Assembly: GCA_965224465.1 (NCBI GenBank)
Contig: OZ245049.1
Coordinates: 3,660,001-3,692,000 of the forward strand
Length of the DNA: 32,000 nt
Origin: Flavobacteriaceae bacterium
GTDB taxonomy: Bacteria; Bacteroidota; Bacteroidia; Flavobacteriales; Flavobacteriaceae
Reading direction: 5' to 3'
Both the position numbers and the translations under genes were made by a program. Below the pieces are notes generated by a model. It was not told the origin of the DNA and made no database searches. It worked only from the letters and a program-made list of their open reading frames with translations. Position 1 is the stretch's first letter; every line of letters starts with the position of its first letter. Shown piece after piece: positions 2,621 to 6,547 of this stretch.

Positions 2621-4402
2621 ATGGAAACCAAAATAGAAAATTTAATGTGGTGGGATGAGGCAAGTAAAAAAACCTACACACCACCAGTAAAAGAAGAAGA
2701 TAAAACAAAAACGAGTAGCACCAAAAGACCTTCTATGTTGCCGGAAGGTACTGTGGTAGAAGAAATACCACAAAAAGATGTTGTACCTTTAGACAATAAA
2801 ACAACAGCAGTTAAACCAGATGCTAAACCAACGAAAGATAGTATACCAACGACAAGTACAACCGCTGCTCCAACACCAGAAACTAAAGTAGAAGAAAAAG
2901 AAGTACCACCAAAACGTATGTTTCCTAAAAGCAATATAGTACATCACTTTCATCCAATTGCTTGGGTGGAGCAGATGAAACGAATGTATGGAGATTGTAA
3001 AGTTTTGAAAAAAGGAGATAAAAACGAATTAGTTAGAGAAATAAATATCCGTTTAGCAGGTTTTGGAGGAAATGTACCAACTGACGAGTTTACACAACGT
3101 ACCGTAGATATGGTTAAACAATTTCAAAAAGACTATATGGAAGTGGAGCAAACTGGTGAAGTTTGTGGTAAAATGTTTAAAGCTATTAATGAGTTTAGTG
3201 AGAAGTATGATATATCAAAGACTATTTGGGGTCAATTAGACTGTAGTTGTACAGGAAAAGGTACAAATAAATACAATAAACTAAACGGTAAAAAAGAATT
3301 AAATAATTGTAGTGGTTGGGGAGATAAATCTGGAAAAAGTACGTATAAATCAATAATACATTCAGGAGCAATGCATAAGTATGAATACCCTGGTTTACAT
3401 CGTAGTCTATTATTTGGGGTTAAAGCACTTCAATTTTATTTAAGTAAACAAAGTGTTTATCAATTAGATCTTATAAGTTCTGGATATCGATGTCGCTTTA
3501 AGAATTACAAAACGACAAATCACATGGGGAAAGCAATTGATATTCAGTTTAGTAAAGAAACATGGAAAATACGACAGGCGCATAAAAAAAATTTAAAACC
3601 CTTAAGAGAGATTAGAGATGATTTTTATATCAAATTTTTAGGTGCTCAAAAAAAATGGACTAATTCGAATATGTTCTCAATAGAACCTATTGATTTATTA
3701 TATTATGCTAGTGGAGATTTAAGATATGACCATACTTTTAGTTGGATTCATATGGATGTGAGGGAATTTGATACTATATACTTAGCAGATAAATTCTTTT
3801 GCAAAGATGAAACTAGCTTAAATGGAAAGAGTATTATGGAATTAGCTTGCATCGGTTCAGAAAACAACACAAATTCAGATAAAGGAAATGAAGAAAGGGT
3901 TAATCCAAAAACTCTAAAAACCAGTGAGAAAGGTATTCAGTTTATTAAAGATTGGGAAATTTTCAAAAGTGAAGCATATAATGACTCTGAAGACTATTGT
4001 ACAATAGGTTATGGGCACTTAATTGCCCGTGATAAATGTGAAAATATTACTTTATCTGAAGGATTTAAAAATGGAATTACTAAAGAAAAAGCAACCGAAT
4101 TATTTAAAGATCGTCTAGTAGACTTTGAAAATTCTATTCAAAGAGATATAAGTGTTGATTTGCATCAATATGAATTTGATGCATTAGTTAGTTTGGCTTT
4201 CAACACAGGTTCAAACTTTTTAAATACTGGAGGAGCAGGAAAAGGAGAGACCCAAATAAAAAAGAAAATTAATAATGAAAACTACTCTGAAGGAGCTGAT
4301 GAAATGGGTGATGTAACTAATAATGGAACAAGTGGCTTAGTAAAAAGAAGAAAATCCGAAATTAATATTTTCAAAAACAACATTTATGATTCGACACACT
4401 AA
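2621..4402 (+). CDS. Polymorphic T6SS-associated cell-wall effector: constant N-region, PG_binding_1-like domain, M15A/LAS zinc peptidase domain, GH24 (T4-type) lysozyme domain
   Basis: aa ~75-125 (PTTSTTAAPTPETKVEEKEVPPKRMFP..IVHHFHPIAWVEQMK) repeat the 5' end of the first ORF. PG_binding_1-like segment: LKKGDKNELVREINIRLAGFGG...FTQRTVDMVKQFQKDY..TGEVCGKMF. LAS/M15A motifs: SSGYRCR...NHMGKAIDIQF...WIHMDVRE. GH24 motifs: GIQFIKDWE..AYND..DYCTIGYGH...QYEFDALVSLAFNTG. The reading frame is also open for 84 nt upstream of the ATG (2537-2620). Confidence 0.8.
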   Translation: METKIENLMWWDEASKKTYTPPVKEEDKTKTSSTKRPSMLPEGTVVEEIPQKDVVPLDNKTTAVKPDAKPTKDSIPTTSTTAAPTPETKVEEKEVPPKRMFPKSNIVHHFHPIAWVEQMKRMYGDCKVLKKGDKNELVREINIRLAGFGGNVPTDEFTQRTVDMVKQFQKDYMEVEQTGEVCGKMFKAINEFSEKYDISKTIWGQLDCSCTGKGTNKYNKLNGKKELNNCSGWGDKSGKSTYKSIIHSGAMHKYEYPGLHRSLLFGVKALQFYLSKQSVYQLDLISSGYRCRFKNYKTTNHMGKAIDIQFSKETWKIRQAHKKNLKPLREIRDDFYIKFLGAQKKWTNSNMFSIEPIDLLYYASGDLRYDHTFSWIHMDVREFDTIYLADKFFCKDETSLNGKSIMELACIGSENNTNSDKGNEERVNPKTLKTSEKGIQFIKDWEIFKSEAYNDSEDYCTIGYGHLIARDKCENITLSEGFKNGITKEKATELFKDRLVDFENSIQRDISVDLHQYEFDALVSLAFNTGSNFLNTGGAGKGETQIKKKINNENYSEGADEMGDVTNNGTSGLVKRRKSEINIFKNNIYDSTH

Positions 4403-5119
4403 ACTAGTACTTCTATTATCAATTATTGTAATAGTTTTTTCCTGTAAAAAAGAACAAAACAATAAACATAAATTACCCACTAACTCTAACGTTATATTTT
4501 CTGATATAAAACCTAACTCTGGTTTAAATAATACATATCAATACTTTACATCCTTTAAAATAAAAAACAATTATGACTCTTCTGATAAAAATATAACGGA
4601 TAAATTTAGAAATCTAACTTTTAATTTTATTAATGATACTATTGTAAAGGTTAAAGGGCAAGAGGCTTTATATAGAAATACCATTCTTGCTAAAAAATAT
4701 TTTGGCCACGAATATTTATATAAATTCTATTCTAATTGTTTACATGACAAATTAGATATAGATCTTCCCCAAAATATTGAATCTGTTAGGAATAAAAATT
4801 TACATTCAAAACAATCTATTTTATATGATTTATTCAAAGAAGGTTTTTTTGTTAAAGAAAAATTTATTTTTGAGTATGATGGTAATATTATAATATTTCA
4901 AAACCAAGAAATAGTTATAAAAACAAACAAAAAAACAGTTATAACTTTACCTTTTAGTGAAGAGGACTTTGAATATAGTCAAAAATCATATCCTTATATA
5001 AGTAAAAATAAATACAAAAAAATACAAAATTTAATTATAACCCAGAATCCGGAAAATAGCGAAATAGATCGCATAATTCAAATTAATAATAAAATGGATT
5101 TTGATACGTATGTATATTT

Positions 5120-6244
5120 CTTAAATTCAACTAATAAACGCAACTTTTCGATTTGATTCTATGATGGTTATATTTTCAAAACAGAAAAGTAGGAAAACCT
5201 ACCTTTCTTGTCTTGATGGATATGTATCTTACGGTCTCAAATCTCGAAAAAAGAAGTTGTATGAAACACATCACCCAAGCACAAAGATACACAATTTGCT
5301 GCATGTTAAAACAAGGTTATAAACAGGTTGAGATAGCAGCTGCTATAGGAAAAGACAAGTCTGTTATTAGCAAAGAGATTAAGCGTAATTCAGACAAAAG
5401 AAATGGAGTTTACAAGCATGAATTAGCCCAAAAAAAGTATGCTAAACGTCATAAAGAAAAGCCTAAAAGAAAACGCTTTACAGAAGATATTCAACAAGCA
5501 ATAGAATTGTTATTGCGAGACGATTATAGTCCTGAGCAAGTAGTTGGTATCCTAAAAAAACAAGGTAAAGAAACGGTGTCTATTGAGCGTATATATCAGC
5601 ATATTAGGGAAGACAAGAGGAATGATGGTGATTTACATACACACCTTCGCAGACAGGGAAGGAGATATAGAAAACGTGGCTCATCAAAGGATTCTAGAGG
5701 GGTTATAAAGAATCGCATTAGTATAGAACAACGACCTGAAGTTGTTGAACAAAGAAATCGATTTGGAGATTTAGAGGTCGATTTAATCATAGGTAAAAAC
5801 CATAATCAAGCCATACTTACCGTAAATGATAGAGCTTCTGGAATGCTTAAAATGAAAAAAGTAAGCTCTAAAGAAGCAGTTGTTGTCACCAAAGCTATCA
5901 ATGAAATATTAGAAGACTGGAAGCCTTATCTACATACTATAACAGCTGATAATGGAAAAGAATTTGCAGGCCATGAGCAGGTTGCAGAAAATTTATGTAT
6001 TGATTACTTTTTTGCGCATCCATATCACTCTTGGGAAAGAGGATCTAACGAAAATTTAAATGGTTTGATTAGACAATATTTTGCCAAAGGAAGTGACTTT
6101 ACAAACCTAACAGATCAAAGAATCAAAGAGGTAGAAACAAAATTAAATAACAGACCTAGGAAGAGACATAAATACGAAAACCCTATATTTGTAATGGAAC
6201 AATTATTATTTAACTAAAAGTTGCGTTTGTGACTTGAATTCAGC
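5120..6244 (+). mobile_element. IS30-family insertion sequence, copy A (1125 bp)
   Basis: Single 334-aa transposase ORF. Imperfect ~31-bp terminal inverted repeats (left CTTAAATTCAACTAATAAACGCAACTTTTCG; right end reverse-complemented GCTGAATTCAAGTCACAAACGCAACTTTTAG). 3-bp direct duplication TTT at 5117-5119 and 6245-6247. Repeated at 9125-10249. Confidence 0.9.
5213..6217 (+). CDS. IS30-family transposase
   Basis: N-terminal HTH-like region (HITQAQRYTICCMLKQGYKQVEIAAAIGKDKSVISKEIKRN) and a DDE integrase core (DLEVDLI...ITADNGKEF...HSWERGSNENLNGLIRQYF). The true start may be an ATG at 5216/5222 or at 5261 (MKHIT) rather than the TTG at 5213. Confidence 0.9.
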   Translation: MMDMYLTVSNLEKRSCMKHITQAQRYTICCMLKQGYKQVEIAAAIGKDKSVISKEIKRNSDKRNGVYKHELAQKKYAKRHKEKPKRKRFTEDIQQAIELLLRDDYSPEQVVGILKKQGKETVSIERIYQHIREDKRNDGDLHTHLRRQGRRYRKRGSSKDSRGVIKNRISIEQRPEVVEQRNRFGDLEVDLIIGKNHNQAILTVNDRASGMLKMKKVSSKEAVVVTKAINEILEDWKPYLHTITADNGKEFAGHEQVAENLCIDYFFAHPYHSWERGSNENLNGLIRQYFAKGSDFTNLTDQRIKEVETKLNNRPRKRHKYENPIFVMEQLLFN

Positions 6245-6547
6245 TTTTATTATTGGAGATTCGTCATTTTCGGAGTTAATTAATGTAAAAGGGGAAGAAA
6301 TTATTTCAACTGTATTAGTAGGTCATCAATACCCTGCTAATAAAACTTATGAAACATTTTTAATAGAAAAGAATTTTTCAATTACAATATATGATGTTGA
6401 ATATGAAACTAAGGCAAAGAAAATATTGGAAAAATATCAAGTTCTAAATGATGGCACAATTAAAAAAATATTTAGCTATAGAAAAAAAGTTGATAATTCA
6501 AATTATAGTGCGCCTAATTAATTTGTAGGATGATTTAATTAATAATT

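Follow-up and report, generated by a model that had tools for sequence, protein, structure and literature searches.

The window, by which we mean the whole 32,000-nucleotide stretch of Flavobacteriaceae DNA analysed here, holds an array of effector and lipoprotein genes, with nested IS66, IS256, IS21 and IS30 elements around it, together with the core genes of a T6SS(iii). The second effector gene of the array, effector 2, is followed by a lipoprotein gene, lipo2, that is divided in two by an IS30-family element. The features of the locus are:

3..1523, plus strand: effector 1; the open reading frame exits the left end of the window and has no Pfam match above threshold
1526..2536, plus strand: lipoprotein 1, 336 aa; no family match
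2621..4402, plus strand: effector 2, 593 aa, comprising a conserved N-terminal region (residues 1-124), PG_binding_1 (residues ~125-192), a conserved central domain (residues 193-418; M15/LAS-like motifs SGYR, H301-x5-D307 and H377-x-D379) and a GH24 Phage_lysozyme domain (residues 429-593; E446/D455/T461)
4386..5119, plus strand: lipo2 5' part, residues 1-245 (signal peptide, whole N domain, C-domain residues 1-68)
5117..5119: target-site duplication TTT, left copy
5120..6244, plus strand: IS30-family insertion sequence, copy 1 (IRL 5120-5148, IRR 6216-6244)
6245..6247: target-site duplication TTT, right copy
6248..6521, plus strand: lipo2 3' part, residues 246-335 (remainder of the C domain, now without a signal peptide)
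6548..7498, plus strand: lipoprotein 3 (lipo3), 316 aa; NCBIfam NF046077 (M949_RS01915 family)
7579..7782, plus strand: 67-aa remnant resembling effector 1 residues 130-159
9125..10249, plus strand: IS30-family element, copy 2 (target-site duplication ATT at 9122-9124 and 10250-10252)
18232..32000: T6SS(iii) core genes, namely TssC (18232-19575, 777 bits), ClpV-like AAA+ (20138-22630), TssO (23864-24370), TssN (24389-25255), TssE (27238-27669), TssF (27681-29501), two Hcp genes (29680-30066 and 30503-30898) and, by eye, a VgrG-like open reading frame that exits the right end of the window

Effector 1 and effector 2 have a common linker with 90% nucleotide identity (window 1-149 against 2844-2992), and lipoprotein 1 is presumed to be the immunity partner of effector 1; P0003, considered as a paralogue of lipoprotein 1, was rejected as no more than an alternative start call of the lipoprotein 1 gene. 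Relatives of the lipo3 gene occur in the arrays of two other loci (L030 and L035); it probably represents an orphan, or else a further gene of the immunity type. Its product has no relationship to lipo2, and the suggestion in a preliminary description of this DNA that it supplies immunity against effector 2 gains no support. The 67-aa remnant is a truncated third effector bordering the IS cluster. The genes for TssC, TssN, TssO, TssE, TssF and Hcp follow effector 2 at a distance of 14-26 kb, and all of the T6SS genes visible in the window are intact open reading frames. By eye only, a region of effector 1 resembles lambda-type (GH104) lysozymes.

The IS30-family element and the gene it interrupts

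The two copies of the element, which lie 4 kb apart, are each 1125 bp long and 100% identical, as the preliminary description had them, and its family assignment is also supported. The transposase open reading frame of copy 1 (5213-6217, with the ATG at 5261 as its likely start) matches the NCBIfam equivalog model NF033563 (transpos_IS30) with 289 bits against a cut-off of 80, and also matches HTH_38 and, weakly, rve. The terminal inverted repeats are imperfect, with about 24 matching positions among the first 29; the window contains their core at four places, all of them element ends, against an expectation of 0 from shuffles. Direct repeats of 3 bp are present at both copies, TTT at copy 1 and ATT at copy 2. 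Members of the IS30 family are about 1.0-1.25 kb long, with terminal inverted repeats of 20-30 bp and target-site duplications of 2-3 bp, and the present element agrees with this in its family-model match, its compact build of one open reading frame between terminal inverted repeats and its short duplication. It shares with E. coli IS30 and relatives one transposase that combines an HTH at its N-terminus with a DDE/rve core, the size of about 1.1 kb, imperfect inverted repeats of about 29 bp, a 3-bp duplication and insertion that inactivates a gene. Its best DNA matches in a plasmid collection are 70-77% identical over 7-15% of its length, and on these matches it would be a distinct, unnamed member of the family.

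Precise excision of 5120-6244 and one TTT joins 4386-5119 to 6248-6521 in a 1008-nt open reading frame of 335 aa that reads ...DFDTYVYF-IIGDSSFSE... across the junction, exactly the sequence that had been claimed for it. In the same way, excision of copy 2 and one ATT gives a continuous reading frame for an IS66-family transposase, the gene of which, on the minus strand, is the host of that copy. As found, the 5' open reading frame of lipo2 continues into the element as far as 5156; the N-terminal fragment is truncated, as had been stated, but it comprises 245 native residues followed by 11 encoded by the element, 256 aa in all and not 244.

The lipo2 family was revealed by exhaustive HMMER searching only, which found 51 relatives; a word-indexed search returned the truncated fragment alone when run with the reconstructed protein and 20 proteins when run with a 74-sequence profile. 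Many of the relatives are 315-344 aa long and align without gaps across residue 245, in a region where the motif FDTYVYF-x2-GDSSFSELINV is conserved and D249 is invariant. The site of insertion is intragenic in all of them, and the pair of separate genes that had been proposed as contrary evidence was found in none. An uninterrupted homologous site is present in L035 and L036. In L035, a metagenomic relative with about 90% nucleotide identity that was reached through a protein relative, the site is free of the element and has the same T run: identity to the window is 89% over 4917-5119 and 91% over 6245-6599, the overlap between these matches is precisely the 3-bp target, which L035 has once, and the reconstructed junction is identical at 95 of 106 nucleotides without an indel. 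An exact-match metagenome search for the rebuilt empty site (29 bases, two of which are mismatched in L035) found none. The identity of the two copies and the uninterrupted site in L035 support the earlier view that the insertion was recent. These comparisons establish the element, its boundaries, the duplication, the sister copy and the exact pre-insertion sequence, and the IS30 hit in lipo2 is a real, recent and ordinary IS knockout.

Effector 2 and the lipoprotein gene that follows it

The GH24 domain of effector 2 matches Pfam PF00959 with 89.7 bits (cut-off 22.3) and PDB muramidases at E 5e-12, reaches a Foldseek TM-score of up to 0.84 (on target), and has all of the catalytic residues E446, D455 and T461. 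For the central domain the SGYR, H301-x5-D307 and H377-x-D379 motifs are invariant among 33 homologues, and the match to Pfam Peptidase_M15_3 is sub-threshold (E 0.071). Neither profile searching of the PDB sequences nor hhalign against the VanY protein of the window matched this domain, and the best 50 Foldseek matches listed in each library were lysozymes only. On its motifs and the sub-threshold Pfam match, the central domain looks M15-like.

Effector 2 is intact, in that every family-invariant residue and the GH24 triad are retained. Its residues 1-124 are 95-97% identical to those of three paralogues from the same genome, so that the proposal that it is a silent orphan is not supported. 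Homology to paralogues extends 84 nt beyond its ATG on the upstream side, as far as the lipoprotein 1 stop, and raised the idea of a 5'-truncated orphan; this was dropped as unproven given the match of residues 1-124 to the paralogues, the public gene calls that start P0008 and P0014 (two of the four same-genome proteins) at MWWDEA, and the presence of the same N-terminal region in L035. In Kaistella a homologue of effector 2 follows a DUF4280 (PAAR-like) gene within a T6SS cluster, and another, from Aquimarina, is a fusion with DUF4280; no PAAR-like gene adjoining effector 2 is visible in the window. The cluster context and the DUF4280-linked homologues suggest that effector 2 is a T6SS(iii) cargo effector, and its secretion is predicted.

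At the N-terminus of lipo2 a hydrophobic helix leads into Cys20-Lys21; across the family Cys20 is invariant and the pair invariant or nearly so. This is typical of a lipoprotein signal, and predicts that lipo2 would be exported to the periplasm, the compartment of the toxin. Searches of Pfam, NCBIfam and Foldseek/PDB gave no match for lipo2, neither sequence nor fold similarity to solved immunity proteins was seen, and promoter and terminator scans gave hits at chance level only.

The start of lipo2 overlaps the effector 2 stop by 17 nt, and this arrangement recurs. A lipo2-family gene is next downstream in nine of the 11 loci that have a GH24-bearing effector homologue, with an overlap of 17-23 nt in eight of the nine; in the other (L006) the gene begins 19 nt past the stop. 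The two remaining GH24 loci (L021 and L022) have a diverged gene that overlaps the effector 3' end, begins with the same MI(Q/H)xxK start and gives no HMM match. The downstream arrangement, mostly overlapping, is found in Flavobacterium, Kaistella, Aquimarina, Flavivirga, Mariniflexile and Chryseobacterium, and also in a Massilia, where the downstream gene is not recognised by the HMM. Because it recurs across genera, and in nine of 11 GH24 loci, the premise of the preliminary description that lipo2 is the immunity protein of effector 2 is well supported, as far as gene order can indicate function.

Two domains and the position of the cut

An AF2 model of lipo2 (pLDDT 81) predicts two domains, N (residues ~48-176) and C (residues ~185-325), a build that is a new finding here. 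In the model residue 245, at which the IS cuts, lies inside a beta-strand (240-246), and the cut is confined to the C domain.

The distribution of the two domains follows that of the effector domains. Strong HMM matches to the N domain (E 6e-19 to 9e-38) occur downstream of nine of 11 GH24-bearing effectors and of none of the 20 that have the central domain only (Fisher p = 2.7e-6, a value that is optimistic, as are the others given here, because the loci are phylogenetically related and not independent). C-domain matches are found downstream of both groups (8/11 and 13/20, respectively). Downstream of effectors with PG-binding and central domains only lie lipoproteins of 179-209 aa that consist of the C domain alone (L030); after effectors with GH108 the C domain is joined to an N domain of another type; and in some loci (L006 and L013-L015) the modules are separate genes rather than a fusion. 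Pairwise identities of the central domain and the C domain co-vary (Mantel rho 0.63, p = 0.0008); the other three domain pairings showed no significant co-variation, GH24 with the N domain giving rho 0.24 (p = 0.2).

We infer from these patterns that lipo2 is a fused two-module immunity protein in which the C domain would pair with the effector central domain and the N domain, from presence and absence only, with GH24. The architecture of the family suggests one immunity domain per toxin domain. A broader reading, which we hold tentatively and at a little short of even confidence, is that lipo2 belongs to a modular, unannotated T6SS(iii) immunity family whose domains are shuffled with those of the effectors (the N domain with GH24, another N domain with GH108, the C domain with the central M15-like domain), and that the IS has created a separation-of-function allele. 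If so, the guard against one toxin blade would be gone and the other kept, and both its kin and the central domain of its own effector could then harm the strain. Confirmation of one immunity domain per toxin domain would provide simple rules for predicting immunity specificity at Bacteroidota T6SS loci and two new inhibitor folds, one for GH24 lysozymes and one for an M15-like peptidase.

Consequences of the insertion and comparison with known systems

In our judgement the insertion into codon 245 of this 335-aa periplasmic lipoprotein gene has probably disrupted the immunity gene cognate to the neighbouring T6SS(iii) cargo effector, with its PG-binding, M15-like and GH24 muramidase domains. 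By interrupting a C-domain beta-strand it would remove the module directed against the central domain; the signal peptide and the whole N domain are still encoded, and protection against GH24 may persist. The earlier idea that the N-terminal fragment still protects would hold for the one whole domain that is retained and fail for the one that is lost. Cell-wall T6SS effectors are without a signal peptide and act only once sister cells deliver them to the periplasm. The expectation that the strain would intoxicate itself was overstated, because such toxins do harm only after injection by sister cells; established T6SS biology makes the loss of immunity conditionally costly, not lethal. This would explain why the loss is tolerated, any cost being limited to dense, contact-rich growth in which the T6SS is firing. 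The effector array would already be decaying through IS activity, with its truncated third effector and the nested IS66, IS256, IS21 and IS30 elements.

That the insertion carries no cost at all is possible, if doubtful: the immunity proteins of the three paralogous effectors might cross-protect, the T6SS or effector 2 might be unexpressed, or the 256-aa fragment might be enough. The same genome encodes the paralogues P0009 and P0014, which share 62-66% identity with effector 2 in the central domain and presumably have C-domain immunity proteins of their own, but at a toxin identity of 60-66% immunity is as a rule still specific, and searches of limited sensitivity found no further lipo2-family member from the 5.24-Mb source contig. 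The intact N domain and signal peptide would fit a sufficient fragment, and the IS-riddled neighbourhood suggests relaxed selection; set against this are the intact T6SS genes in view and the conservation of the effector 2 N-terminus, which equals that seen in the paralogues. It is unlikely that lipo2 serves some other envelope function and is a chance neighbour of the effector, its loss being unrelated to toxin protection. The family's want of a Pfam, NCBIfam or PDB match would allow this, as would P0131, a C-domain-only relative amid housekeeping genes with no effector nearby; however, orphan immunity genes look like such stand-alone copies, and against it stand the conserved, usually overlapping arrangement in six genera (with the Massilia locus besides) and the domain-for-domain matching and co-variation with the effector. 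Assemblies classically go wrong at identical repeats that exceed the length of short reads, but misplacement of one of the two IS copies, with lipo2 really intact, is very improbable given the perfect 3-bp duplication at each copy, the meaningful open reading frame restored by each excision, a source whose one contig of 5.24 Mb points to a finished assembly, and public gene calls in which the two parts of lipo2 already appear as distinct proteins (P0001 and P0005).

Taken by itself, the IS insertion is a routine case of genome decay. Its main value, if lipo2 is the cognate immunity gene, would lie in a clean, datable case of an immunity gene lost with the toxin kept intact, which bears on the erosion of T6SS arsenals and the vulnerability of strains to their own kin. 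More useful is a by-product, the unannotated lipo2 family, which probably supplies the immunity partners for an effector family widespread in Flavobacteriia/Chryseobacterium. Tsi1 and Tsi3 of P. aeruginosa are periplasmic immunity proteins of cell-wall-degrading T6SS effectors. TsiP of Aeromonas dhakensis is reported to be a single immunity protein that inhibits both domains of TseP, an effector with two cell-wall activities within one protein (PMC11893102). Like these three, lipo2 is encoded directly 3' of a peptidoglycan hydrolase effector, is (by prediction) exported to the periplasm and would be needed solely against delivered toxin, and effector 2 is predicted to combine two cell-wall activities as TseP does. 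Unlike TsiP, lipo2 seems to consist of two separable modules, one per effector domain, and it belongs to a Bacteroidota T6SS(iii) whereas the systems of Tsi1, Tsi3 and TsiP are proteobacterial T6SS(i). The WHIX 'double-blade' effector Awe1 has two immunity proteins, AwiU and AwiD, encoded by separate flanking genes (PMC12135965). Two toxic domains, each with a cognate immunity determinant, would be common to Awe1 and effector 2; here, in contrast to AwiU and AwiD, the determinants are mostly fused in one lipoprotein, and effector 2 is without a WHIX domain.

The orphan modules of Rhs and CDI systems form comparable immunity arrays. Orphan immunity genes are also found in arrays in the acquired interbacterial defence clusters of Bacteroidales (PMC12247911). 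The present loci share with such arrays the extra immunity-type lipoprotein genes after the effector-lipoprotein pair (lipo3, a 184-aa C-domain gene in L035 and the stand-alone P0131) and effector paralogues with a constant N-terminus and variable toxin domains; they differ in that the gene hit by the IS, lipo2, is no orphan but the directly coupled partner of its effector.

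A recent IS30 insertion in a lipoprotein gene

Two copies of a 1125-bp element, identical at every base, occupy positions 5120-6244 (copy 1) and 9125-10249 (copy 2). The element ends are imperfect inverted repeats matching at about 24 of the first 29 positions, and their core, AATTCAA-S-T-M-A-Y-AAACGCAACTTTT, occurs in the window at the four element ends only, where none would be expected by chance. Each copy is bounded by its own 3-bp direct repeat:

5117-5119 and 6245-6247, direct repeat TTT of copy 1
9122-9124 and 10250-10252, direct repeat ATT of copy 2

The sole ORF (5213-6217) scores 289 bits against the NCBIfam IS30 equivalog model (cut-off 80) and also carries HTH_38 and rve signatures. 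The element passed every membership feature tested and belongs to the IS30 family, as the preliminary description had stated. Removal of copy 2 with one ATT yields a continuous IS66-family transposase frame, thus independently validating the element boundaries. Because the two copies are identical, transposition is likely to have been recent.

Copy 1 splits a lipoprotein gene (4386-5119 and 6248-6521). Deletion of the element and one TTT reproduces the 335-aa ORF proposed as the pre-insertion gene (...DFDTYVYF joined to IIGDSSFSE...). Word-indexed protein searches with this lipoprotein matched the truncated fragment only, and an exhaustive HMMER scan of 1.84 billion representatives gave 51 relatives, many of 315-344 aa, which conserve FDTYVYF-xx-GDSSFSELINV with an invariant Asp249. 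A close relative of the locus is found on a metagenomic contig, L035, of which L036 is a near-duplicate. L035 positions 2730-2932 match window 4917-5119 (89% nucleotide identity) and 2930-3285 match 6245-6599 (91%), the two segments sharing exactly the 3 bp that form the IS target. The reconstructed junction agrees with L035 at 95 of 106 positions, with no indel and the same four-T run; L035 carries the uninterrupted 'empty site'. Homologues split at the IS site, which would argue for two original genes, were looked for and not found; many of the relatives align gap-free through residue 245. Within the C-terminal domain, dN/dS between the window and L035 is approximately 0.48 on either side of the insertion, and this comparison revealed no lesion other than the IS. 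These two observations are what would be expected of a gene that kept its function until the IS recently struck and, with the identity of the IS copies, they bear out the recency claimed previously.

A candidate modular immunity protein for effector 2

The lipoprotein gene start overlaps by 17 nt the stop of effector 2 (2621-4402, plus strand, 593 aa), which comprises four regions:

N-terminal region, disordered
second region, PG_binding_1 domain
central domain, well folded, with invariant SGYR, H301-x5-D307 and H377-x-D379
GH24 lysozyme, with the triad E446/D455/T461 present

At the level of motifs, the invariant residues suggest that the central domain is M15/LAS zinc peptidase-like. Its match to Pfam M15 has an E-value of 0.071, a PDB profile search with it gave no match, and the Foldseek matches listed were all lysozymes.

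In Kaistella jeonii, an effector homologue of 887 aa is encoded within a T6SS cluster, after a DUF4280 (PAAR-like) gene, and is followed, also with a 17-nt overlap, by a 330-aa lipoprotein relative; the arrangement in Flavobacterium covae is the same. Separate HMMs for the two halves of the lipoprotein (N, residues 1-176; C, residues 177-335) were run on all ORFs of 33 fetched loci. The gene after the effector had a strong N-domain match (E 6e-19 to 9e-38) for 9 of 11 effectors with central and GH24 domains, but for none of 20 central-domain effectors without GH24 (Fisher p = 2.7e-6, the loci not being independent). Eight of these nine genes share 17-23 nt with the end of the effector and the ninth (L006) starts 19 nt past the effector stop; the other two GH24 loci have an overlapping gene of 324-341 aa with the same MI(Q/H)xxK start. 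The C domain was found downstream of GH24-bearing and GH24-lacking effectors alike (8/11 and 13/20).

Lipoprotein architecture tracks effector architecture: GH24-bearing effectors precede N + C lipoproteins, those with PG-binding and central domains alone precede C-domain-only lipoproteins of 179-209 aa (L030), and GH108-bearing effectors precede lipoproteins in which the C domain is fused to another type of N domain, homologous among these proteins. In nine loci that have all four domains, central-domain and C-domain identity matrices correlate (Mantel rho 0.63, p = 0.0008), a correlation absent for the central/N, GH24/N and GH24/C pairs. Taken together, the overlap, the GH24 association and the domain tracking are strong comparative evidence for the premise that the split lipoprotein is the immunity protein of effector 2.

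An AF2 model of the reconstructed protein (mean pLDDT 81) comprises a signal helix, a disordered linker and two separate domains (48-176 and 185-325), with the insertion point inside C-domain beta-strand 240-246; no solved structure resembling the protein was found. Nucleotide homology to L035 begins exactly at the inter-domain linker (window 4917, residue 178), and the 85%-identical C domain of L035 forms a lipoprotein gene of its own (184 aa), placed after another N+C immunity gene. The window gene is therefore a mosaic, with its recombination breakpoint right at the boundary between the domains.

At window 4386-4402 and in L001, L003-L005, L007-L009, L012, L021, L022, L025 and L035, the first codons of the immunity gene overlap the final ones of the effector (...YDSTH*). 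As a consequence, the N-terminus M-I-(R/Q/H)-x-(I/T)-K is kept even where the remaining protein has diverged past HMM recognition, making it a handy marker for diverged immunity partners. The betaproteobacterium Massilia eburnea (L022, 9329-12341) has an effector of 39% identity that combines PG-binding, central and GH24 domains and is followed by an overlapping gene, which suggests that the pair has moved between phyla.

The predicted pair resembles known periplasmic pairs. In its logic it comes nearest to two recent cases: TseP/TsiP, in which both TseP domains are inhibited by a single immunity protein (PMC11893102), and the WHIX double-blade effectors, which require two separate immunity proteins (PMC12135965). 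The proposed fused, domain-matched protein would be intermediate between these cases; a non-exhaustive literature search found no description of such a protein.

Consequences of the insertion

The 256-aa product retains the lipoprotein signal and the whole N domain, and the remaining 90 residues have no export signal; the C domain alone is destroyed. Under a modular model the strain would have lost protection against the central domain of effector 2, but may still be shielded from its lysozyme domain. The idea that the N-terminal fragment still protects is refined accordingly, the fragment keeping the N domain entire and losing the C domain.

Cell-wall T6SS effectors have no signal peptide and do no harm in the producer's cytoplasm, and immunity to them is needed only against attack by sister cells, as work on Tse1/Tse3 of P. 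aeruginosa has established. The expected self-intoxication is therefore softened to a conditional cost, incurred on sister-cell delivery. It is possible that the immunity proteins of paralogues cross-protect the strain, although protein searches of limited sensitivity found no further family members from the source genome. The proposal that effector 2 is a silent orphan is not supported: its N-terminal 124 residues are 95-97% identical to those of three same-genome paralogues whose toxin domains differ (central 38-66%; GH24 54-79% or absent), a combination that is the signature of an active polymorphic-toxin family. Immunity supplied by the next lipoprotein (lipoprotein 3, 6548-7498) is unsupported, the two lipoproteins being unrelated.

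Against NCBIfam NF046077, 'M949_RS01915 family surface polysaccharide biosynthesis protein', lipoprotein 3 scores 118 bits (cut-off 60). Its gene nevertheless belongs to a T6SS effector-immunity array, and in L030 and L035 relatives of it come after the immunity genes; for members of this type the name of the family could be misleading.

Overall, the preliminary description was correct and carefully reasoned, though the event is an ordinary one, the knockout of a gene in an IS-rich accessory region. The knockout by itself merits modest attention, and it is the modular immunity family that deserves to be pursued.

Array, mobile elements and secretion system

The array at the left end runs effector 1 (incomplete, as the window begins inside it), lipoprotein 1, effector 2, the split lipoprotein, lipoprotein 3 and a 67-aa effector remnant. 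This last ORF (7579-7782) resembles effector 1 residues 130-159 and looks like what is left of a third effector, cut short where the IS cluster starts. Effectors 1 and 2 share a 149-nt stretch (1-149 and 2844-2992, 90% identical) encoding a common Pro/Thr-rich linker and a PPKRMFP..IVHHFHPIAWVEQMK segment; recombination that exchanges toxin cassettes is likely to use this stretch. Downstream, mobile elements are nested at 7999-12654:

7999-8196, C-terminal fragment of IstB (IS21 helper)
8203-9135, resuming beyond 10253, IS66-family transposase broken by IS30 copy 2 and an IS256/Mutator-type element
10545-11777, IS256/Mutator-type transposase gene, inside the IS66 transposase
11810-12127, IS66 N-terminal piece
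12301-12654, IS66 TnpB

The T6SS is of the Bacteroidota type, to which TssO and TssN are specific. Its cluster contains:

TssC (777 bits)
ClpV-like AAA+ protein
TssO and TssN
TssE and TssF
Hcp, two genes
VgrG-like ORF, running past the right window end (likeness by eye)

Among the core genes are a VanY-type D-Ala-D-Ala carboxypeptidase (22747-23505) and an NlpC/P60 lipoprotein with CarboxypepD_reg domains (26177-27109), which might remodel the cell wall specifically for the apparatus or be further effectors. The stretch between the Hcp genes (30064-30394) holds two 111-nt tandem repeat units and 51-60-nt repeats, with a related copy at 13071-13163, upstream of a gene for a large T9SS-sorted protein (13545-17273). 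Two 43-nt hairpin-forming sequences (12778-12820 and 17971-18015; 88% alike, AAAAACCTGTATTTC...GAAATGCAGGTTTTT) flank the genes at 13545-17953; they could act as terminators or represent a small repeat family.
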